A DNA stretch of 64,000 nucleotides from positions 5,325 to 69,324 of IMG/VR virus record IMGVR_UViG_3300014204_000179; one strand, given 5' to 3'. The position numbers and the translations under genes are program-made. Positions 2,188-63,727 of this stretch are shown here, piece after piece. Below the pieces are notes generated by a model. That model had not been told where the DNA came from, searched no databases, and was given only the letters and a program-made list of their open reading frames with translations. Within the stretch, counting starts at the first letter, position 1; every line of letters begins with the position of its first letter. The DNA is from a virus. Taxonomy: Duplodnaviria; Caudoviricetes.

Positions 2188-3294
2188 TTATAAAGTAAAC
2201 CTATTTTGTTTTTGTGCTTTACGTTTTAATTCATTTACATTACGATATGCTTCAGGATTAAAATTCTCCCTTTTTACTATTGAAACTAAGAAATTAAATT
2301 CATTTTGACAAATAACTTGACCAATATAATCATTATTCTCTGTCTTAAGAACATAACTTTTTGGTGCTCTACTTGTAGAAGAAGGATTACCTTCAACATC
2401 AATTGTTGCATCGAAAGTAAGATCAAGAACTTCCTGAATTTTTTCCTGAACATTTGCAGTCATCTTTTCTTTAGTTCTAATTAATGCTTTTTCAAGTAAA
2501 TCAACAATACTATCTTGATGATTTTTTTTAATTTCTTCATATGCCTGAGTAAATTCAGTGTTTGAAGTTTTCTGCTTCAATTCACTTATAATTGCAAGTG
2601 CACCATAACAGTCACGAATCATTAAATCCCAAACTTGTTCAGCATAAGTAAATGAAGGAAATTTATCAATTGCAACAATTTCACCATCAATTAATATAAC
2701 AACACCAATAAGGTTTTTGGGACGTTCAAAGTGAGCAATAAATTGTTCAAGTTTCTTATCATATTTTTCAAAATATACATTAAGATAACGACCAGTACCT
2801 GAATCGGTTTCACGACCTAATTTTTCAATAGCCGGATAAATTCTACCAAGATCAGATGGTTTTCCGATAGTATCAAATACCATTTCACGCATAGTTATCG
2901 GAAGCATACGAAATTCCTGAGTACCTCTAAATGTTCCACCCTGAGAACCTTGAACACAACCAGCATCATGGTAAGTAATGTTTGATTTACTTGCCATATA
3001 ACCTGCTTTGGTCATACCATGATTCTGAGCACTTTGTTTAGTAATTACCGCCATTTGTGTTGGTAAAATAATTTCCTTATCTTCTTTATTGGTAAAACTA
3101 ATCTGACCATATGTAGAATTACCAGCAACTAATGAAGTCAATGGATTAGCAAAACGTTCATCCATAGAATATTCTTTATCAGTCGTTAAACATACAACTT
3201 GCATATTTAATATGCTTTGTATTACTATGTTACCGTTTTTATCTTTAATTGGACGACAACCTTTTAATAGTTCAGTAAAATCTCTTGTATTCAT
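2188..3294 (-). CDS. ARPP-1 (DUF6569)-like protein
   Basis: Motifs AQNH...AGCVQGSQGG and GVVILIDGEIVAIDKFPS...VW..M.RDCYG resemble the ARPP-1/DUF6569 family (recognised from memory, needs HMM confirmation). Confidence 0.6.
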   Translation of the reverse strand: MNTRDFTELLKGCRPIKDKNGNIVIQSILNMQVVCLTTDKEYSMDERFANPLTSLVAGNSTYGQISFTNKEDKEIILPTQMAVITKQSAQNHGMTKAGYMASKSNITYHDAGCVQGSQGGTFRGTQEFRMLPITMREMVFDTIGKPSDLGRIYPAIEKLGRETDSGTGRYLNVYFEKYDKKLEQFIAHFERPKNLIGVVILIDGEIVAIDKFPSFTYAEQVWDLMIRDCYGALAIISELKQKTSNTEFTQAYEEIKKNHQDSIVDLLEKALIRTKEKMTANVQEKIQEVLDLTFDATIDVEGNPSSTSRAPKSYVLKTENNDYIGQVICQNEFNFLVSIVKRENFNPEAYRNVNELKRKAQKQNRFTL

Positions 3295-3710
3295 AATAAA
3301 TTAATTTTAATATTTATTTTTTCACATGCTAAATTATATACTTCAAACGCTAATTCTTCTGTTTCAAATCTACCTAAAAATTTTGTTTTATTACAAATTG
3401 TTATTCTTGATATCCAAGGTTTTTGAGAATTTTGTTTATCTTGCGATACACCAACATATTTACTACTACTTTTCATTCTTCTTCTCGCATGATGAGTATT
3501 CTCTCTTGAAGTACACCATTCCAAATTTAATAAAAAATTATTTTTTCTATTTCTATCCTTATGATTTACTTCATTTAAATTATTTAAATAAGGAATAAAA
3601 GCTTCAGCAACTAATCTATGTATAGTATGTGACTTATTTATATTATTTTTTGATAAAGTTACTAAAACATAACCTTCACTTATAAAAGTATTTTTCAATG
3701 AACCTTTCAA
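3291..3710 (-). CDS. HNH homing endonuclease with C-terminal AP2-like domain; NUMOD4 segment continues upstream in frame to about 3812
   Basis: IHRLVAEAF...EVNHKDRNRKNN...NLEWCTSREN (HNH) and SKYVGVS...W.SRI...K.KFLGRFETEE.A..VYN (AP2). The same frame upstream reads KNIVGYEGYYQISNFGRVRS (NUMOD4). Confidence 0.85.
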   Translation of the reverse strand: MKGSLKNTFISEGYVLVTLSKNNINKSHTIHRLVAEAFIPYLNNLNEVNHKDRNRKNNFLLNLEWCTSRENTHHARRRMKSSSKYVGVSQDKQNSQKPWISRITICNKTKFLGRFETEELAFEVYNLACEKINIKINLL

Positions 3711-3838: not shown

Positions 3839-5467
3839 TTAAACGTTAATACTAATTTTTTTTGACCTTTTAATTGGTATAGATTCAAGAACCAATACCT
3901 GATTTTCAAGCCACTTTTTGGTATCAATTTCAAGCAACCTTGCGTTAATCTGTGGTTGTAATGCTACTGGATTGTTAATTGCCATTGTAATAACCTTTGA
4001 ACCCAATTTTCTCACATTACCACCCATTTCAGCACTGGTAATTGGTGAAATTTGAAACATTGGAATATTTCTACCACTTTCTGCTGTCCAAATACCTATA
4101 ACTTCATTTGTTAATCCATCATAAGCATTTTCATAACCATCAGTTAAAATGAAAATTGCATCATATGGTTTTAAAGGATTTTCCCTTTTTAATAAATCAA
4201 TAAATGAAGTAGCTAAATCAGTAACTTCACCTTCAGTTCCGATTATAACACCTGTTTTTGTAGACTTCAAAAGAACTTTTGCTGTAAATTCTGCAATAGC
4301 TTTTGGGGTGTTTTTAGATTCTTGTTTATGACCAGTCATTGAATTACTATTATCAACAATAATACCAATATTTTGATAAAAGAATCCATCAATCTTCTTC
4401 TTTTCTGCAAGTTTATCAATTGCAGTTTTAATTTCATTAGTAAAACCATTTTCATAACCAGTTTTGTAAAGTGCTAAGAAATCAGTTGCCTTTTCCAAGT
4501 CAACATTTTTTTCAACACCTAACTTAGCTGTCGATTTTGTTTGACGTACCTGCTGGTTAATAGAAGTAACTTCAACATTTTTCCTAATTAAAGCTTTTGT
4601 TGTTTCTTTCTGAAGTTTTGTTGCCCACATTGAATGATATTGTGGATGTTTTACACTTGAAATTAAACCCAAAAGAACTTCTTCCGGTACAGTTTTAATT
4701 CCAGTAACATCTACTTTTGCTTTTTGATATTCACTCAAAAGAGGAAATTCTGTTACATCATAAGTGATATTATCATCCCTTTTGTAAATAAAAAGTAATA
4801 GTTTAAATGCTTTAATTGCATCACCATTAAAATACTTCAAAATTAATTCATTTGCAATATTTCCTTCCTTTTCATTACTAATTCCAGTAGGATATGTTAT
4901 CTGCTTACTTGCTATTGAAAGCAATACTGATGTCATTTTATTTCCATAAATATGTTTTAAAACCTGAGCAATCTTATTACGATATTTCATCGTATAAAAT
5001 TCAAGATTTGATTGACCCCAAATAAAACCAAGTGCAATCTTTCTTGATCTTTCATTATTTACTTTAGCACTTTTCAATCCCACAAATAAACGAAGAACAT
5101 ATGGAATACCATTTTCACCAAGATTATTTAATGCAGACAAAACTGCTTTATCACTTAATCCATTATCATACCAGTCAAGTGGATTAACAATATTACATGC
5201 TCCACCCCTTAAAGTACTTTTAAATTCATTAAGTAATACCTCTGAAATAAACAGACCTGTAGCACCTTTTTGATTTGCTACAATTAAAGGTAATTCTTTC
5301 GAAAGCATATACAAATTCCTAATTTGAGTTTGAATAGCTTTTGTTTGATCTTCTTTCTTATGGTAATAAGTAGCACTGCTCTTAGCACCACTTGCAACAG
5401 TTAAACCATCAATTAATGATTGTTTTACTATACTGAGCATTTTTTGTGTTAATACCAAATCTTTCAT
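3839..5467 (-). CDS. vWA-domain protein with ~360-aa helical N-terminal region (Ro60/TROVE-like architecture)
   Basis: C-terminal MIDAS motif IIVDNSNSM...TDLA...IFILTDGYEN. The 542-aa size and helical-N/vWA-C layout match Ro60/Rsr. The TROVE assignment is an inference. Confidence 0.65.
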   Translation of the reverse strand: MKDLVLTQKMLSIVKQSLIDGLTVASGAKSSATYYHKKEDQTKAIQTQIRNLYMLSKELPLIVANQKGATGLFISEVLLNEFKSTLRGGACNIVNPLDWYDNGLSDKAVLSALNNLGENGIPYVLRLFVGLKSAKVNNERSRKIALGFIWGQSNLEFYTMKYRNKIAQVLKHIYGNKMTSVLLSIASKQITYPTGISNEKEGNIANELILKYFNGDAIKAFKLLLFIYKRDDNITYDVTEFPLLSEYQKAKVDVTGIKTVPEEVLLGLISSVKHPQYHSMWATKLQKETTKALIRKNVEVTSINQQVRQTKSTAKLGVEKNVDLEKATDFLALYKTGYENGFTNEIKTAIDKLAEKKKIDGFFYQNIGIIVDNSNSMTGHKQESKNTPKAIAEFTAKVLLKSTKTGVIIGTEGEVTDLATSFIDLLKRENPLKPYDAIFILTDGYENAYDGLTNEVIGIWTAESGRNIPMFQISPITSAEMGGNVRKLGSKVITMAINNPVALQPQINARLLEIDTKKWLENQVLVLESIPIKRSKKISINV

Positions 5468-5538
5468 TATATAAAAATTTATTTAAATGGTTATTTAAAA
5501 TTTCACTTGGTAAATATATATAAAATTATCTAAATAAA

Positions 5539-5594
5539 AAATAAAATGGGCAGAGTAGGCATATTTCTATGCCTTGTCCCCACCCATTTTATTT
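5539..5594 (-). terminator. Long hairpin with GAAA tetraloop and U-rich tail between the RNA array and the vWA gene (terminator or processing site)
   Basis: Minus strand ATAAAATGGG-TGGGGACA-AGGCATA-GAAA-TATGCCT-ACTCTG-CCCATTTTAT, followed by TTTTTATTT. Confidence 0.6.
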
Positions 5595-5622: not shown

Positions 5623-5693
5623 GAAGAAGTTCGACTGTATTGTTTAATAATTATTATATTTCAAATATTTACTGAAAACACAATCAGTTCTTC
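5623..5693 (-). ncRNA. Array unit A: conserved module closing an AT-rich loop (no tRNA part)
   Basis: 5' GAAGAACTGATTGTGTTTTCAGTA pairs with 3' ACAATACAGTCGAACTTCTTC (GAAGAA/TTCTTC and ATTGT/ACAAT). Confidence 0.7.
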
Positions 5694-5815
5694 CAAATAT
5701 TTTTGAAAAATATCACACTTCTGTGATTTAAAATCATTTTTAACCTACGAACTAAAAAGAACGTTTCAAATGTTAGGCGGTAATTTTTATATTCTGATAC
5801 CGACAGAAATAATGT

Positions 5816-5960
5816 TTGGGAACATTTTAAAAGTATTTTTTGTTATAAATGCAAGTTTAAGAGACTTGTGCCTTATCCAGCTTGGCTAATCGTTCAATTT
5901 TTGAAGAACAATATCGGATTCGAACCGATGAATTACTGTAAACACTTTTCGTTTTCCCAA
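5816..5960 (-). ncRNA. Array unit B: circularly permuted tRNA-Lys(CTT)-like RNA joined to the conserved module at the variable loop
   Basis: Order on minus strand: module 5' strand, T arm ATCGG-TTCGAAT-CCGAT, acceptor 3' ATTGTTC, 10-nt linker, acceptor 5' GAACGAT, TA, D arm GCC-AAGCTGGATAA-GGC, anticodon arm CAAGT-CTCTTAA-ACTTG, module 3' strand. Confidence 0.85.
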
Positions 5961-5964
5961 TTTG

Positions 5965-6098
5965 CGGGGAGAGTTGGAGTCGAACCAACATAAACTGTTT
6001 TCACACAATTATTTTACCTTTTTTACTGAAAACACCATTAGTTTTCCCATTTAAGGGAATATTGAGATAGTATTATTTTTCGATATTTCTATCTCCCC
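5965..6098 (-). ncRNA. Array unit C: tRNA-like RNA with the module inserted in place of the D-loop; degenerate 6-nt anticodon loop
   Basis: Acceptor GGGGAGA/TCTCCCC is perfect. T arm GTTGG-TTCGACT-CCAAC. Anticodon-like arm ATTGT-GTGAAA-ACAGT. Insert AATACTAT..TTCCC-ttaaat-GGGAA-AACTA-ATGGTGTT-TTCAGTA. Confidence 0.8.
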
Positions 6099-6128
6099 AT
6101 TTTAATATTTTAAAGAACTTTAAAAATT

Positions 6129-6205
6129 AGAAGAAGTTTGTTAGTTTTTGTTTTGTAATGATTCGATTTACCGTCAAATTTACTGAAAAAACTATCAGTT
6201 CTTCT
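6129..6205 (-). ncRNA. Array unit D: conserved module closing a short insert with a T-loop-like remnant
   Basis: AGAAGAACTGATAGTTTTTTCAGTA ... AAAAACTAACAAACTTCTTCT; core TAGTTTTT pairs 8/8 with AAAAACTA; the insert contains TCGAATC. Confidence 0.7.
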
Positions 6206-6212
6206 TTTTTAG

Positions 6213-6286
6213 TAGCGGGAGTGGGATTTGAACCCACGAACTTGTGGTTATGAGCCACACGAGATGACCATCTTCTCCATCCCGCA
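6213..6286 (-). tRNA. tRNA-Met (CAT), initiator-like 1:72 mismatch, CCA not encoded
   Basis: Full cloverleaf: TGCGGGA/TCCCGCT, D arm GAGA/TCTC, TGTGG-CTCATAA-CCACA, GTGGG-TTCAAAT-CCCAC. Confidence 0.9.
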
Positions 6287-6295
6287 ATATATTTT

Positions 6296-6423
6296 AAAAA
6301 GGATATTGTGTTTGTTGTGTTTGTTTAAGAATATGGGAATTGAACCCACGACATTCTGCTTACGAAGCGGATGCTCTACCAATTGAGCTAATTCATACTG
6401 AAACAACAATCAGTTTCCTTTTT
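6296..6423 (-). ncRNA. Array unit E: conserved module clamped around a complete tRNA-Thr(CGT)-like cloverleaf
   Basis: AAAAGGAAACTGATTGTTGTTTCAG precedes the tRNA and AAACACAACAAACACAATATCCTTTT follows it (AAAAGGA/TCCTTTT and TTGTTGT/ACAACAA). Confidence 0.8.
6325..6397 (-). tRNA. tRNA-Thr (CGT)-like cloverleaf embedded in unit E
   Basis: TATGAAT/ATTCTTA (one mismatch), GCTC-AATTGGTA-GAGC, TCCGC-TTCGTAA-GCAGA (one mismatch), GTGGG-TTCAATT-CCCAT; no CCA. Confidence 0.7.
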
Positions 6424-6425
6424 TG

Positions 6426-6560
6426 TGGGGAAGGTAGGAATCGAACCTACAATCAACTGTTCTAAAGACAATTTGCTGTACCTTTTACTGAAATCACAAT
6501 CAGTTCTCCAGCAGGAGTATGACGATTATAATCTTGTTTTTTATATTTGCATACTTCCCC
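6426..6560 (-). ncRNA. Array unit F: tRNA-like RNA with the module inserted in the D-loop; anticodon position reads TTA
   Basis: Acceptor GGGGAAG/CTTCCCC, D-stem TGC/GCA around a long insert ending GGTACAGCA, ATTGT-CTTTAGA-ACAGT, T arm GTAGG-TTCGATT-CCTAC. Confidence 0.8.
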
Positions 6561-6612
6561 ATTAATTTACTTCACAATAAGTGAAAGAACTTTTTTTATT
6601 ATAAAGACGATG

Positions 6613-6643
6613 CAAATGTATTTTAAAAAAATTTACTATGCAA
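6613..6643 (-). promoter_or_regulatory. Bacteroidota housekeeping-sigma promoter driving the RNA array
   Basis: Minus strand TTG (6643-6641), 20-nt spacer, TACATTTG(CA) (6620-6613); matches the TTG-N19..21-TAnnTTTG consensus. Confidence 0.75.
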
Positions 6644-6743: not shown

Positions 6744-6796
6744 TAAGATGATTTTTTAAAATTCCTTTCAATACTGTGGGGAAAGTGTGGGTAATT
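6744..6796. repeat. Left arm of perfect 53-bp inverted repeat
   Basis: TAAGATGATTTTTTAAAATTCCTTTCAATACTGTGGGGAAAGTGTGGGTAATT is the exact reverse complement of 7098-7150. Confidence 0.95.
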
Positions 6797-7097: not shown

Positions 7098-7150
7098 AAT
7101 TACCCACACTTTCCCCACAGTATTGAAAGGAATTTTAAAAAATCATCTTA
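7098..7150. repeat. Right arm of perfect 53-bp inverted repeat
   Basis: AATTACCCACACTTTCCCCACAGTATTGAAAGGAATTTTAAAAAATCATCTTA; 301-bp spacer to the left arm. Confidence 0.95.
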
Positions 7151-20249: not shown

Positions 20250-20825
20250 TTATTTTTTTATAATATAATAACAATCATTATCTATTAATATTTTTTCTTC
20301 TTTTTTTTGAAGAAATTCATCAACTGCAATAGTTGCACCTTTACAATAATCTGAATTATAGTCATCTAATATTATATATCCACCAACAATCATTTTATCA
20401 TAAAAAAATTCTAATGCTAATTTATGTGACAAATATTGATCAACATCTAAATGAACTAAATTGAATTTAATATTTATAATATGTTTTCCAGTTTCTTCAG
20501 GAAAAATACCTTTAAATATTAGAACATTAATGTCAGGAAATAATTTACAAGTTTCATCATATGATGTATCGTAAAAATCACCAAGATTATGCCAATTATC
20601 ACAATCAGATTTATAAGGCATACCATTAAATGTATCAAATAAATATAAATTACTATTTTTATTCATTACATCATATATTACTTTTGCACTACCACCTTTA
20701 TAAACACCAACTTCAGCAATATTTGCTTCAATATCACCCAATTCAATTATTTTATTTTTAATAAAATTAATTTTTTTCTTTAAAACAATAGTTTCACCAA
20801 ATTTTAATGTATCGCATTTTTTCAT
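20250..20825 (-). CDS. TylF/MycF-family O-methyltransferase
   Basis: IAEVGVYKGGS, LFDTFNGMP, KGIFPET, VHLDVD.Y, GGYIILDDY. Confidence 0.85.
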   Translation of the reverse strand: MKKCDTLKFGETIVLKKKINFIKNKIIELGDIEANIAEVGVYKGGSAKVIYDVMNKNSNLYLFDTFNGMPYKSDCDNWHNLGDFYDTSYDETCKLFPDINVLIFKGIFPEETGKHIINIKFNLVHLDVDQYLSHKLALEFFYDKMIVGGYIILDDYNSDYCKGATIAVDEFLQKKEEKILIDNDCYYIIKK

Positions 20826-22495
20826 GTAAATTTTTCAATAATATTATAAATTCTTTCTGCAGCATGTCCATCACCAAACGGACAATCGTAATTAATTTCA
20901 TAATCATTAATATGTTTCAAAAATTCACCAAGTAATAATTCTGGTGATTCTATCATAAATGTACTCTGTCCTATTGCTTCAGGTCGTTCAGTAATAATTC
21001 TGCAAGTTAAACATTTTTTATTAAAAAAACTACATTCTTCTTGTAATCCACCACTATCAGTAATTACAAGTCTTGTTTTTATTAATAAATTAAGCATATC
21101 CTCATATGATAACGGATCAATTACTTTAACATATTTTAATAAATGTTTATGTTTTTGAACATTTGGATTTGGATGTATAGGCAAAATAAATTCATATTGA
21201 GGATATAACTTTGCAAGTGTGTTGATTACAGTAAACCACTGGTCAAGCCAGTGATGATTTTCACGTCTATGTAGAGTTATTAATATCTTATTTGTATATT
21301 CACATTTTTCCTTATACGGTAAAAGATTATCTATTACAGTATTTCCAACTACGAAAAATTCACCAAAACATCTTTCTCTTGTAAGATTTTTTAATGCTTC
21401 TTCAGTTGGACATAAATGAATATCGGCAATTTGCGAAATAAGTCTACGATTAATTTCTTCAGGATATGGATTTTGTTTATTGTATGTACGAAGTCCTGCT
21501 TCTAAATGAATTATTTTAATATTATTATGAAAAGCTGTTAATGCTACTGCAAATGCTGAAGTAGTATCCCCTTGAACCATAACATGAGTAATATATGGAT
21601 GTTTATTTAAAAATTTTCCAAAATTATTAATGTTTCCAACTACAATCGAATCTAATCTGTTTGATTCTTTATTTTCTTTAATGTTGAATGAAAAATCATA
21701 TTTGTTCCTATTTACTATATTTTTATGTTGTCCAGTAAATGCATATAAAACTGGAATAAAATTTTTTTCGAGGGTTTGTACTAACTTAAATGTTTTTAAT
21801 TCCTCTGGACGAGTTCCCGCAACTATTAATATACATTTTGTATAATCAACCGAATTCTTGAATTCATTTTTATATTCGATAGTTAATAATTTTCTTAATT
21901 TTTTTAAAAATCCATATGGTATTCTTATTAATCTAATATTATTCTCATTACAATATTTAGTTTTAATTATTTCATTTTCTTTTATTTTTTTCAATTTGTT
22001 TTGAAAAATACCCGTTTCCCTATAAATAAAATGTTGCTCACCATCATATTCAATACAGCAATTATAATCAGGTAAATAAAAATCAAATGGAAGGGGTCGC
22101 CTTTCACCCCTGCAATTATTAAATAAATATTCTTTAATAAAATTTATATTTAGTTCATTCAATATTCTTGAAATTTCCTTTTCTCCCTTAGATTCTTTAT
22201 TGCACACGGGACACCATGTACCATTTGATATATGTTTTGTTGTTGCAAGCCAAGTATGATTATTTTGACATTCCCATTCGTATTTATGATTAACTGATTG
22301 ATATCTTGATGATAGACAAATACCATTATTCTTTTTTGCTAAATTATTTAAATATTCAACACCAAAATATTCTTTCGATAAGAAATTTCCTCCCTTTTCT
22401 TTAATTATTTTCAGTAATTTATTATATATATTTACTTTTTTTAAACGCATATTATATATTTTATTGTTCCGTATACTAATATTATCATAATTCAA
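20822..22495 (-). CDS. wecB: Fusion of a PD-(D/E)XK homing-endonuclease-like module (N-terminal) and UDP-GlcNAc 2-epimerase (C-terminal)
   Basis: N-terminus WECQNNH.W...GTWCPVC...PFDFYLPDYNCCIEYDGEQH. C-terminus GTRPE, TGQH, VQGDTTSA, HLEAGLRT, PYPEEINR, TLHRREN, TDSGGLQEE, PFGDGHAAERI. Confidence 0.85.
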   Translation of the reverse strand: MNYDNISIRNNKIYNMRLKKVNIYNKLLKIIKEKGGNFLSKEYFGVEYLNNLAKKNNGICLSSRYQSVNHKYEWECQNNHTWLATTKHISNGTWCPVCNKESKGEKEISRILNELNINFIKEYLFNNCRGERRPLPFDFYLPDYNCCIEYDGEQHFIYRETGIFQNKLKKIKENEIIKTKYCNENNIRLIRIPYGFLKKLRKLLTIEYKNEFKNSVDYTKCILIVAGTRPEELKTFKLVQTLEKNFIPVLYAFTGQHKNIVNRNKYDFSFNIKENKESNRLDSIVVGNINNFGKFLNKHPYITHVMVQGDTTSAFAVALTAFHNNIKIIHLEAGLRTYNKQNPYPEEINRRLISQIADIHLCPTEEALKNLTRERCFGEFFVVGNTVIDNLLPYKEKCEYTNKILITLHRRENHHWLDQWFTVINTLAKLYPQYEFILPIHPNPNVQKHKHLLKYVKVIDPLSYEDMLNLLIKTRLVITDSGGLQEECSFFNKKCLTCRIITERPEAIGQSTFMIESPELLLGEFLKHINDYEINYDCPFGDGHAAERIYNIIEKFT

Positions 22496-45038: not shown

Positions 45039-46247
45039 ATGAAATTTATTTATAAATCATATAAATTTAAAATTATCCCCAATAATGAGCAAAAAGTTCT
45101 TTTTGCTAAACATTTTGGAGCTTGTAGATTTGTGTTTAACCATTATTTAAATCTTAGAAAAGAAACTTATTTAGAAGAAAAAAAATCACTTAACTATTAT
45201 GATAACGCAAATGACCTGACTATTTTAAAAAAGAATGAACAGTTTGTATGGCTAAAAGAAATTAACTCACAAAGTTTACAGTCATCACTTAGAAATTTAG
45301 ATACGGCATATAATAAATTTTTTAGAAGACAAACTCAATTTCCAAAATTTAAAAACAAATACAACAAACAAAGTTTTACCATACCACAGTCAGTATATAT
45401 CGAAAAAGATAAACTTTATATACCAAAATTTAAAAAAGGAATTAAAATAAATATTCACAAACAAATTAAAGGTAAAATTCTTTCTACAACAATATCTATG
45501 TCAACAACGGGTAAATACTATGTAAGTTTTACTTGTGAAGTTGAATATACCCCATTTGAAAAAACAAATTCAAATATTGGTATTGATACAGGTATAAAGG
45601 ATTTAGCAATACTTTCAGACGGTAAAGTCTATAAAAACATTAAGACACTTAAAACCAATTTAAAAAAGTTAAAATATAATCAAAGACAATTATCTAAAAA
45701 AGTAAAAGGAAGTAATTCCAAATTAAAACAAAAATCAAAACTTGCAATAGTACACGAAAAAATAAGTAATATTAGAAAAGACTATTTACATAAAGTCAGT
45801 ACAGAAATCATCAAAAACCACGATGTAATTTGTATTGAAGATTTGACAGTAAAAAATATGATGAAGAATCATAAGTTAGCACAAGCATTTTTGGATGTTT
45901 CGTTGGGAACTTTTTACACTATGCTTGAATATAAAGCTAATTGGAATGACAAAATAATCGTTAAGATTGATAGATTTTTTCCAAGTAGTAAAACATGTAA
46001 TGTTTGTAATTATATTAATCAAAACTTAACTCTAAAAGATAGAAAATGGACTTGTCCAAGTTGTAATACAATACACGATAGAGATTTTAATGCAAGTATA
46101 AATATTAAGAAACAAGGTTTAAAAATACTATCTGGTTCAGGAACTGAATCGGATATAAAACAAAAACATGATGAGGCATTATCAATTGATAAGTCAATGA
46201 AGCATGAAACCAATTTAATTGGTAGTTCATATGTACTAAAACTATAA
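45039..46247 (+). mobile_element. tnpB: IS200/IS605-family TnpB RNA-guided nuclease, no TnpA nearby
   Basis: FGACRFVFN, RuvC residues GIDTG / IEDL / HDRDFNA, Zn finger CNVC..CPSC; right-end-like hairpin ACCAATT-T-AATTGGT-AGTTCAT ending at 46230. Confidence 0.9.
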
Positions 46248-62205: not shown

Positions 62206-62448
62206 TTGATAATAATTATTTTAATATTATTGTCGGTAATATATCGTATGAGAAAAAAATATTTCAATGATTTTGAGAAAAATCTTATCATTTTTATAAT
62301 TAACATGTATTTAGATTATGGAGAAAGTATCGATATTTTTCCGAATAAAGAAAAAAAAGAAATATTACTTCATAAAATAATTGAATTAAAAAATAAAATT
62401 GAAAATGATAAGACACACAGAAAAGTGCATAAAAAGAATAAACCCTGA
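62206..62448 (+). CDS. Hypothetical protein
   Basis: 80-aa ORF; start uncertain (ATG near 62248 is plausible). Confidence 0.4.
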   Translation: MIIIILILLSVIYRMRKKYFNDFEKNLIIFIINMYLDYGESIDIFPNKEKKEILLHKIIELKNKIENDKTHRKVHKKNKP

Positions 62449-63727
62449 ATTATATTTAGGAATATTAAAATTTTCAACAAACATTAATTTAAAAAATTTT
62501 ACTCAAAAATATTATAATTATATTAATAACTTAAAAGAAATTCCTAAATGTTTAAATTGTGATAATGATTGTAATTTTTCGGGAAACCTAAAAAAAGGAT
62601 ATTATACATATTGTTCAGTAAAATGTATGTCAAATTCTATTATAGAAAAAAATAAAATAAAGGAAACTAATCTTAAAAAATATGGTGTTGAACATCATTT
62701 AAAATTAAAATCTCAAAAAAATAAAATAAAGGAAACTAATCTTAAAAAATATGGTGTTGAATGTGTTTCGCAGGTTGATGAATTTAAAGAAAAAACAAAA
62801 CAAACTAATTTAAAAAAATATGGAGTTAATTCATATACTCAAACTAAAGAATATGATAAAAAAGCTAAAGAAACCAATTTAAAAAAATATGGAGTTGAAC
62901 ATCATTTAAAATTAAAATCTCAGGTAAATAAACAGAAAGAAACTAATTTAAAGAAATATGGTGTTGATTCATTTTTAAAAACAACCGAAGGAAAGAATAA
63001 TTTAAAAGAAAAAATATTAGAAAAATATGGATATGAATATTCATCTCAATGTCCAGAAATTAAAGAAAAAATAAAACAAACCAACATAAAAAAATATGGA
63101 GTTAATAGTCATAATCAATCAGAAGAAATAAAAAAAAAGAAGAAAAAAACATCATTAGAACATTATGGTGTTGAAAATCCTTCACAATGTTTAGATATTA
63201 TAAAAAAAATAAAAAGAACTAAATTTGAAAAATATGGTGATGAAAATTATAATAACAGAAAAAAATCTAAAGAAACGACATTAAAAAATTATGGTGTTGA
63301 AAACCCAACCCAAAATAAAGAAATAATGAAAAATATTATAAATACCATGATAGAAAGATATGGAGAGGTTTGGTTAAAACATATTCCAGCTTATAATCCA
63401 AATTCAATCATATATTTAGATTTAATTTCAAATAAAATGGGATTATCAATACAACATGCATTAAATGGTGGTGAGAAAAAATTTGTTAGATATTGGGTTG
63501 ATGGTTATATTGAAAAATATAACATTTGTATTGAATGGGACGAAAATAAACACAATAATAAAAAACAAAAAGAAAAGGATTTAAAACGAGAACTTTTTAT
63601 AAAGGAAAATTTTAATTGCCATATTATTAGAATTTTTGAAAAAGATTTTTTTAATAATATTAGTAATAATATTGATATCATTTGCAATAAAATTAATTTA
63701 ATTATAAAACAAAATTTTAATAACTAA
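62399..63727 (+). CDS. Putative homing endonuclease with KETNLKKYGV repeats and C-terminal PD-(D/E)XK domain
   Basis: About ten K.TNLKKYGV..-type repeats; YWVDGY...NICIEWDE..H...RE..I. Confidence 0.8.
   Translation: MKMIRHTEKCIKRINPELYLGILKFSTNINLKNFTQKYYNYINNLKEIPKCLNCDNDCNFSGNLKKGYYTYCSVKCMSNSIIEKNKIKETNLKKYGVEHHLKLKSQKNKIKETNLKKYGVECVSQVDEFKEKTKQTNLKKYGVNSYTQTKEYDKKAKETNLKKYGVEHHLKLKSQVNKQKETNLKKYGVDSFLKTTEGKNNLKEKILEKYGYEYSSQCPEIKEKIKQTNIKKYGVNSHNQSEEIKKKKKKTSLEHYGVENPSQCLDIIKKIKRTKFEKYGDENYNNRKKSKETTLKNYGVENPTQNKEIMKNIINTMIERYGEVWLKHIPAYNPNSIIYLDLISNKMGLSIQHALNGGEKKFVRYWVDGYIEKYNICIEWDENKHNNKKQKEKDLKRELFIKENFNCHIIRIFEKDFFNNISNNIDIICNKINLIIKQNFNN

Follow-up and report, generated by a model that had tools for sequence, protein, structure and literature searches.

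In a 64,000-nucleotide stretch of viral DNA (the window; positions 5,325 to 69,324 of IMG/VR virus record IMGVR_UViG_3300014204_000179), two small RNA units designated C and F are, with a probability that may be put at roughly 0.65, paralogous members of a conserved phage family of small RNAs that serve as Y-RNA-like, tRNA-mimicking partners of a diverged Ro60-type protein encoded just downstream. Ro60 and Y RNAs are conserved from bacteria to humans, and to our knowledge the recruits of a Y RNA effector domain are known in few cases only. The two units belong to an array of six (A to F) that also contains tRNA-Thr and tRNA-Met. Their structure is conserved among related phages, they are linked exclusively to a gene pair encoding the Ro60-like protein and an ARPP-like protein, and they fit a decoding tRNA poorly.

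Structure of units C and F

Both units have a tRNA-shaped scaffold (Table 1) composed of an open 7-bp acceptor, U8/A9, a D stem of 2-3 bp, a 5-bp anticodon-like stem, a variable loop of ~5 nt and a T arm, in which D-loop positions ~15-17 are replaced by a ~62-nt two-helix module located between the 5' D-stem strand and G18G19. Read from 5' to 3', unit F comprises the acceptor strand, the residues TA (positions 8-9) and a D stem of 3 bp (TGC/GCA). An A-rich linker without pairing leads to helix I, which spans 12 bp in the minimum free energy (MFE) fold, and then come helix II, a CAGTA motif, the segment AAAAGG containing G18G19, the ATTGT-CTTTAGA-ACAGT arm, a 5-nt variable loop and the T arm. 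In the MFE folds of both units, the strand of the module that recurs throughout the array, hereafter the handle, pairs with a partner located on its 5' side, and the module is closed by a small capped hairpin; the fold z scores of the two units are -3.4 and -3.0, and none of 200 shuffles folds as well. Unit C is somewhat degenerate, its D stem being reduced to one G-U pair and an A.A mismatch and its anticodon-like loop to 6 nt, and it scores 104 bits against the covariance model R1 described below, versus 115-148 bits for most copies. These folds agree with a preliminary description of the region, which had reported perfect acceptors, T arms, a common ATTGT/ACAGT stem with differing loops and a D-loop insert, all of which are present on the minus strand. 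The reported lengths of 134 and 135 nt for C and F are correct when the discriminator is counted (133 and 134 nt otherwise), and the insert indeed occupies the D loop, outside the canonical 37/38 position.

Conservation and covariation of the family

Searches of 59 related loci (numbered with the prefix L) by nhmmer with C and F returned full-length matches upstream of the homologous protein gene in nearly all of them, often two or three per locus. The units match each other by nhmmer (E ~1e-6) and both fit one covariance model, as expected of the paralogues that they had been taken to be, and they fall into two subfamilies, both of which have orthologues across many related phages. A scanner requiring a T arm plus complementary 7-mers detected perfect acceptors of varied sequence (GGGCGAG/CTCGCCC, GGGGAGT/ACTCCCC, GGAGAAG/CTTCTCC, GGAGGGT/ACCCTCC, GGGAAGA/TCTTCCC), with the total length kept at 131-139 nt in most copies. 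R1, a covariance model with six helices, found 46 copies at 81-148 bits, and the addition of more distant loci brought the set to 58 distinct full-length copies.

Among these 58 distinct sequences, 96.3% of the alignment cells form standard pairs, as against 45-56% when the partners are slid by 1-3 columns, the 96.3% being inflated by the fitting of the alignment to R1; RNAalifold run on an independent MAFFT alignment recovers the same helices. The 12-13 unpaired cells at two acceptor pairs correspond to a one-base MAFFT register slip of F-type copies in R1, the stems themselves being perfect according to the scanner. Both sides have changed in 26 of the 32 pairs (247 cells), and none of 500 shuffles attains any of these measures. 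Compensatory changes affect all five pairs of the T stem, seven of the nine pairs of helix I and three of the four of helix II, whose innermost pair switches between C-G (29 sequences) and U-A (23). The pairing of the two module helices thus bears out the suggestion that the module is permuted within the D loop. Likewise, the 5' G-rich acceptor strand covaries with the 3' strand, as in GGGCGAG/CTCGCCC, GGAGGGT/ACCCTCC and GCCCCCG/CGGGGGC, and is therefore paired in the functional RNA, of which it had been proposed to be a part. The last of these acceptors comes from a distant copy, L140, whose D stem is 4 bp long (GATC/GATC) and whose helix I (GGTTTACCTGT/ACGGGTAAATT) covaries and precedes CAGCA and AAGG; distant lineages hence keep the architecture with a wholly different sequence.

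Per-column entropy is lowest in the motif that follows the handle (0.41 bits), the most conserved region of the RNA. The T-loop consensus TTCGATT has 0.61 bits, the stem of the anticodon-like arm 0.50-0.61, the T stems 1.03-1.05, and both the anticodon-like loop and the variable loop 1.13. The question of whether the anticodon-like loops diversify faster than the stems, raised in the preliminary description, accordingly receives a divided answer: they do so relative to their own stem, whose entropy is half as high, and they are no more variable than the T stem or the variable loop, so that relaxed constraint explains their variability as well as diversifying selection does. In either case the loop is unconstrained or diversifying, unlike a true anticodon loop. 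Since conservation peaks in the post-handle motif, and since the same module is found in units that carry no tRNA, the D-loop module appears to be functional. The ~135-nt family as a whole displays the sequence signature of a tRNA-like L-shape, namely U8, G18G19, T54-C56 and the 7-bp acceptor. In an F-type subgroup (L035, L038, L040, L041, L044), the T arm (GGTGA-CTCGAAA-TCACC) departs from the canonical form and the GG region of the D loop is altered as well (GGTT), which hints that the elbow contacts may co-vary.

One handle in several connectivities

The handle, with the consensus GAACU-nn-UnGUGUUU-(U/A)CAGUA, is common to all units of the array; it occurs five times within three mismatches, versus 0.00 expected, and a sixth, degenerate copy is also present. 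In units A, B, D and E it supplies the 5' side of a terminal stem and is followed first by the cargo and then by its partner, an 'open' connectivity, whereas the order is reversed in C and F, where the partner strand comes first, followed by the capped helix II and the handle. The open pairing covaries as well: among 23 distinct orthologues of unit D, 95.9% of cells are paired, against 38-65% with slid partners, a pair in helix I alternates between G-C (12 sequences) and A-U (10), and so does the outermost pair of helix II between A-U (16) and U-A (5). Compensatory change thus maintains both wirings, in line with the earlier proposal that one handle in two connectivities reflects selection on structure. 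Sequence conservation within the module helix is confined to one strand, with which the other covaries. An alternative folding of the handle as a local hairpin (ACUGA/UCAGU) was rejected, as AACU is followed by a variable base (G, A, U, C) and CAGU does not vary, with no covariation between them. A third wiring is found at L057:3033-3173, where a normal D arm and an anticodon arm with the loop CTTTAGA, identical to that of F, are accompanied by the module at the variable-loop position.

Two of the open units carry unusual cargoes. Unit B is a circularly permuted tRNA-Lys(CTT)-like RNA in which the T arm and 3' acceptor strand are followed by a 10-nt closing loop, the 5' acceptor strand, the D arm and a complete anticodon arm, and in which a degenerate handle and its partner clamp the break in the variable loop. 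Unit E, with 37 orthologues in L007-L065, is a whole tRNA whose acceptor end is clamped by the handle and its partner; its orthologues have one conserved tRNA body with the anticodons CGT, TAA, TCA (opal-reading, frequent), TAT, TTT, CAA, TTC, TCT, GTC, ATC, GTT and TTA.

A Ro60-like protein and its ARPP-like partner downstream of the array

The gene downstream of the array, on the same strand, encodes a 542-aa protein whose AlphaFold2 (AF2) model, built with 58 relatives, has a pLDDT of 92.4 and a pTM of 0.90. Foldseek gave 13 matches at E <= 0.001, every one of them to a Ro60 structure and aligned over the full length, and VIA-align gave a Z score of 18.4 and a root-mean-square deviation of 4.2 Å over 408 residues to 2i91_A. 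The ten best Protein Data Bank (PDB) entries by VIA-align are all Ro60/Rsr, followed by isolated vWA domains at Z < 10. In addition, the DxSxS metal-site (MIDAS) motif (D372, S374, S376) is conserved across the 58 relatives. Sequence comparisons, in turn, returned no Pfam match (including TROVE, PF05731), no PHROGs match and, by phmmer, no PDB sequence match for this protein, no Pfam TROVE match for ten relatives at 24-41% identity, and no match of the protein-family profile to PDB sequences; a protein-language-model look-up, taken as a lead only, pointed to TROVE/vWA_Ro60 clusters at 0.94-0.95. According to the predicted model, then, the protein is Ro60-like by fold and far diverged in sequence.

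This gene is followed by an ARPP-like gene in 134 of 141 loci, including loci at 27-31% protein identity. The spacing between the two is ~55 bp in most relatives; in the window an HNH endonuclease gene is inserted between them, and a ~600-bp gap is found in L013-L016, L029/L030 and L060.

The RNA family co-occurs with this protein family down to 27-48% protein identity. In five complete genomes of 328-365 kb (G001-G005, the records of L009, L016, L024, L035 and L055), R1 matches above 120 bits occur only beside the Ro60-like gene, and the matches at 28-45 bits are ordinary tRNAs, mostly clustered elsewhere, a range in which the tRNA-Met of the array also scores. C/F-type RNAs were found upstream of Ro60-like genes at 58%, 48%, 40% and 27% protein identity. 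Further, at L067 (31% identity; 1795-2487) a 700-nt gene-free upstream stretch has three related handle copies (AAAGAYACYRG..RTAGATTTTCCG), two of them on permuted tRNA-like units (one with the acceptor GGGGAAG/CTTCCCC, one with the loop CTTCAAA) and the third clamping a tRNA-Val(GAC). No RNA was detected at P0121 (46% identity), a 3.6-kb contig that is too short to interpret and has a gene directly upstream. Because of this exclusive placement in complete relatives and its persistence at distant protein identity, the association between the RNAs and the Ro60-like gene is old and specific. A tRNA-like RNA with a long variable arm was also observed in the L067 region.

Comparison with known Ro60-associated and tRNA-like RNAs

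Y RNAs are encoded next to Ro60 and are modular, the Ro60 site lying in a helix of which mainly one, conserved strand is read (10.1101/312249; PMC4201824; PMC12135203). Phage Ro60 genes with Y-like RNAs directly upstream are also known (PMC12135203, PMC4201824). The array shows the same adjacency to a gene for a Ro60-fold (TROVE + vWA) protein, and the module helix, with its single conserved strand, matches the reading of mainly one Y RNA helix strand by Ro60 (10.1101/312249).

The closest comparison is with the bacterial and phage YrlA RNAs and their partner Rsr/Ro60 (RF02553; PMC4201824; 10.1101/312249). Here, too, small RNAs beside a Ro60-type gene, commonly several Y RNAs per locus, combine a protein-binding helix with a tRNA-like domain that has a T arm, D-arm features and an elbow. 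YrlA differs in having a closed acceptor and no anticodon loop, whereas the acceptor of C and F is open, with 7 bp, and their anticodon-like arm is complete; its Ro60 site is the terminal 5'/3' stem, which replaces the anticodon arm, whereas the module of C and F is a capped hairpin in the D loop. The ends of C and F form the acceptor, and the terminal-stem layout of Y RNAs is present instead in units A, B, D and E. Moreover, Pfam TROVE does not match the protein of the window. The Rfam YrlA model reaches at best 23 bits against a gathering score of 69, in an artefact that spans the T arm of F and the D arm of tRNA-Thr. Thus, C and F resemble YrlA as Ro60-tied tRNA mimics, yet lack its defining layout.

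A phage precedent is the Ro60 homologue of Thermus phage phiLo with Yrl1/Yrl2 encoded directly upstream (PDB 9KOP, 9L5Y; PMC12135203), whose structures count among the top ten VIA-align entries for the 542-aa protein (Z 14.7-14.9). Unlike C and F, however, Yrl1/Yrl2 are stem-bulge-stem RNAs with a CGAA motif rather than tRNA-shaped ones (PMC12135203), they are two in number as opposed to a six-unit array, and no ARPP-like partner gene has been reported there. Outside Ro60 systems, the conserved motif recalls the dictyostelid Class I RNAs, in which a short stem is followed by a conserved unpaired motif of ~11 nt with T, C, C, A and A near-invariant at positions 3, 6, 9, 10 and 11 (PMC7919456). 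The segment GUUUACAGUAA of the handle matches four of these five positions and L140 (…UUCAGCAA), having C at position 9, matches all five, a resemblance only, in one short motif. The organisms, the length and the RNA body all differ, and no Rfam Class I match was found in the region at E <= 10. No paper describing the present RNA family was found; the D-loop wiring of C and F is documented by the covariation above.

Proposed mechanism and its alternatives

The following scheme, from expression and processing to protein binding and the factor engaged by the tRNA-shaped body, is put forward largely by analogy. The array would be transcribed leftward as a single precursor, and host RNase P together with 3' processing would cut at the tRNA-like ends and release the units, a step proposed because just 3-6 nt separate C and F from the handle of the unit that follows each and because the YrlA of Mycobacterium smegmatis is an RNase P substrate. 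The Ro60-like ring would then bind the module, reading mainly the conserved handle strand, and the L-shaped tRNA body with its variable loop would be displayed to a tRNA-recognising factor, for which a processing, repair or modification enzyme or a host tRNA-targeting nuclease are candidates. The ARPP-like enzyme would act in the same particle. The handle helix would accordingly be the putative binding site of the protein, by analogy with the modular Y RNAs encoded beside Ro60, in which one helix strand is mainly read, and the tRNA body would be an effector or bait domain.

If this assignment holds, a Ro60-type module can be moved as a cassette between the terminal stem, the D loop and the variable loop of tRNA-shaped bodies, each wiring being kept by compensatory changes, and these natural topological variants would offer a means to ask what the protein recognises and what the tRNA body does. 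Ro60 biology would then reach a large group of phages of 330-365 kb that are uncultured and whose protein goes undetected by Pfam, and would gain a fixed, enzyme-like partner in the ARPP-like protein. For annotation, the family adds genes of ~135 nt that are missed by tRNA finders and Rfam.

Several points weigh against the assignment. The Ro60-like identity derives from the fold alone, the Pfam TROVE and PDB sequence searches being empty. C and F depart from classical Y RNAs, whose Ro60 site lies in a terminal 5'/3' stem, and the handle does not evidently resemble known Ro60-binding helices in sequence. The module could instead be bound by the ARPP-like protein or a host factor. On the side of the RNA, excision of the insert would leave a plausible D arm in F, which itself has a canonical-looking anticodon loop.

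A bolder version of the Ro60 reading, to be regarded as a rather doubtful extension, takes the array for a display library in which one handle is grafted onto tRNA-shaped bodies at the D loop (C, F), the variable loop (L057), the acceptor end (E) or a permuted body (B), with anticodon-like loops that change rapidly between related phages. The Ro60-like/ARPP-like particle might employ these mimics as decoys for, or sensors of, host enzymes directed against anticodon loops, such as anticodon nucleases and tRNA-modifying toxins, either soaking them up or bringing a repair or reversal enzyme, in an RNA-based Ro60 counter-defence. Should the variable loops indeed act as baits for host defences directed at tRNA, phages would be seen to have a new type of counter-defence.

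Another possibility, judged unlikely, is that the handle module is bound by a different protein (the ARPP-like enzyme, a host factor or a phage RNA-processing enzyme), and that the Ro60-like ring engages the RNAs otherwise, for instance through single-stranded ends in its central hole. The dissimilarity of the handle to known Ro60 sites would fit such an arrangement, as would the ARPP-like gene, which is linked as tightly as the Ro60-like gene (134 of 141 loci), and Ro60 does also bind misfolded RNAs by their 3' ends (PMC4201824). However, the characterised Ro60 systems have their site in a helix with one conserved strand (10.1101/312249, PMC12135203), which is exactly the layout shared by the open units, and ARPP has no known RNA-binding role (PMC9503650).

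It is judged similarly unlikely that the tRNA-like bodies are mainly processing punctuation that recruits RNase P and RNase Z to cut the array and has no function of its own. The close abutment noted above (F|E and C|B) recurs in relatives, RNase P acts well on a 7-bp acceptor joined to a T arm, and it cleaves M. smegmatis YrlA, whose stem has 7 bp (10.1101/312249). A cleavage signal, by contrast, needs neither the conserved anticodon-like stem (0.5-0.6 bits) nor the embedded handle module. Punctuation is compatible with the proposed role of C and F as Ro60 partners, to which it would be an added function.

Poor fit to decoding tRNAs

The view that C and F are decoding tRNAs with a D-loop intron, in which the handle is a splicing signal and whose excision yields ordinary or suppressor tRNAs, appears very unlikely. 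It can draw on the intact acceptor, T arm, G18G19 and 5-nt variable loop, on the D arm that F would regain by losing the insert, and on the CTTTAGA loop of F, which has U33 and R37 and is found at L057 in a normal-looking tRNA body. A CCA-adding-type nucleotidyltransferase domain is moreover present in five of five complete relatives, some in very long open frames (up to 2259 aa), and Rnl2-type RNA ligases in three of five. The Salmonella rsr-yrlBA-rtcBA operon joins rsr, Y RNAs and RtcB; a corresponding RtcB link was rejected here, RtcB being found in just one of the five complete relatives.

Specific tRNA detection gave a different picture. ARAGORN calls neither unit and finds tRNA-Met and tRNA-Thr alone. 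With the Rfam tRNA model (RF00005), F scores 25.1 and C 17.5 bits, below the gathering score of 29; no Rfam family other than the two true tRNAs is found in the region at gathering thresholds, and lowering the cut-off to E <= 10 yields sub-threshold tRNA matches and the spurious YrlA match, nothing else. A 7-bp acceptor and a canonical T arm (T54-Psi55-C56, G53-C61) are present in C, F and the scanner copies, some F-type copies having the loop CTCGAAA. In place of a normal D arm with a 3-4-bp stem and a loop of 7-11 nt, there is a 2-3-bp stem and a loop with ~62 nt inserted, G18G19 being kept. As for the anticodon-like loop, a 7-nt loop with Y32, U33 and R37 is found in 12 of the 58 copies (in F, not in C), which leaves 46 without this signature, and the copies have 32 distinct loops, some of 6 or 8 nt.

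The loop of F would read UUA and hence read through TAA. This codon ends 43 of the 52 long open reading frames (ORFs) and 86% of the window lies in ORFs of >=150 aa under table 11; TAA is therefore not recoded, and recoding was rejected as the reason for this loop. Given that 12 of 58 loops are anticodon-like and that 43 of 52 ORFs end in TAA, C and F are probably tRNA-mimicking Ro60 partners and not decoding tRNAs, a conclusion with which the presence of a separate, ordinary tRNA cluster in these phages agrees.

Splicing of the insert fares no better. Archaeal and eukaryotic tRNAs with non-canonical introns or permuted order offer a parallel in the insertion into the D loop of a tRNA-shaped RNA, and in the permuted unit B of the array. 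However, no bulge-helix-bulge is formed in C and F, as the 5' junction lies in an unpaired A-rich linker of 15-20 nt and the junctions are joined by the 2-3-bp D stem alone. The splicing endonuclease (PF01974) was not found in the five complete related phage genomes, in a search that detected it in archaeal control genomes. The present RNAs further differ from such tRNAs in that the insert is conserved and common to non-tRNA units, that most loops are not anticodon loops, and that they come from a phage rather than an archaeon or eukaryote. Because the insert holds the most conserved bases, no bulge-helix-bulge is present and no endonuclease was found in the five relatives, its removal by splicing seems unlikely, and C and F are probably not working, decoding or intron-bearing tRNAs. 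Overall, the interpretation of the two units given in the preliminary description is supported.

Finally, there is almost no chance that C and F are decaying tRNA pseudogenes or integration-site remnants containing the repeat by accident, as the weakened D stem and 6-nt loop of C might suggest, since six helices are kept by compensatory changes in 58 distinct copies, the length stays at 131-139 nt and the family persists to 27-48% identity of the neighbouring protein; on the grounds of covariation and conserved length, an origin from integration-site or tRNA fragments was rejected.

Genomic context

The record from which the window is taken is a 69-kb fragment, ~23% complete, with 25% G+C. The relatives of the key protein sit on contigs of 320-365 kb, five of which are rated 100% complete and two of which have terminal repeats, and the window encodes a tail-sheath gene and many homing endonucleases; the source is, for these reasons, a huge tailed phage from metagenomes. 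All RNA genes of the array lie on the minus strand, like tRNA-Thr, tRNA-Met and the downstream protein genes (Table 1).

Table 1. Positions in the window of units C and F, their parts, the other array units and the neighbouring genes.
Feature	Positions	Strand	Description and basis
Unit F	6560-6426	-	tRNA-shaped RNA with D-loop module, 134 nt + discriminator A; sequence, MFE fold, R1 127.8 bits, scanner-found perfect 7-bp acceptor
F acceptor	6560-6554 / 6433-6427	-	GGGGAAG / CTTCCCC; discriminator A at 6426
Helix I partner strand in F	6523..6534	-	5' of the handle (permuted connectivity); 12-bp MFE helix, helix I covariation
Helix II of F	6506..6517	-	Small capped hairpin closing the module: CTCC, loop TGCT, GGAG; MFE fold
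Handle strand in F	6486..6509	-	GGAGAACTGATTGTGATTTCAGTA: helix II 3' strand, AAC link, helix I 3' strand, CAGTA motif; repeat family and pairing
F anticodon-like arm	6456..6472	-	ATTGT, loop CTTTAGA (would read UUA), ACAGT
F T arm	6450-6434	-	GTAGG-TTCGATT-CCTAC
Unit C	6098-5965	-	Paralogue of F, 133 nt + discriminator G; sequence, MFE fold, R1 104.2 bits
C acceptor	6098-6092 / 5972-5966	-	GGGGAGA / TCTCCCC; discriminator G at 5965
Helix I partner strand in C	6067..6074	-	Alignment to model, fold
Handle strand in C	6024..6048	-	GGGAAAACTAATGGTGTTTTCAGTA; repeat family, fold
C anticodon-like arm	5994..6009	-	ATTGT, 6-nt loop GTGAAA, ACAGT
C T arm	5989-5973	-	GTTGG-TTCGACT-CCAAC
Other handle-bearing units	5623..6428	-	'Open' connectivity; E, D, B and A below, with tRNA-Met in the same span
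Unit E	6428-6296	-	Handle + tRNA-Thr
tRNA-Met	6286-6212	-
Unit D	6212-6118	-
Unit B	5967-5816	-
Unit A	5712-5623	-
Promoter-like site	6598..6627	-	~35 nt upstream of F; consensus match only, weak (region gave 16 sites vs 10.4 expected)
Terminator-like hairpin	5534..5587	-	Long hairpin then T run at array end, by eye; kept in 33 nhmmer matches, not called by terminator scanner
Ro60-like gene	3839..5467	-	542 aa; helical-repeat ring + C-terminal vWA domain with DxSxS; downstream of RNA array, same strand
HNH endonuclease gene	3291-3710	-	Inserted between Ro60-like and ARPP-like genes
ARPP-like gene	2188..3294	-	Conserved partner of Ro60-like gene; Pfam PF20208, E 3e-13

The phage genome carries many selfish elements. 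Positions 45039-46247 (plus strand), 1099-2064 and 20822-22495 (minus strand) and 62399-63727 (plus strand) of the window hold a transposase-like ORF (phrog_506, E 3e-131) and, besides the HNH gene within the Ro60 operon, three or more additional homing/HNH endonuclease genes. A perfect inverted repeat of 53 bp (6744-6796 / 7098-7150), which flanks 301 bp of AT-rich non-coding DNA, is located at the change of strand where the RNA array gives way to the rightward DUF3987/primase-like genes.

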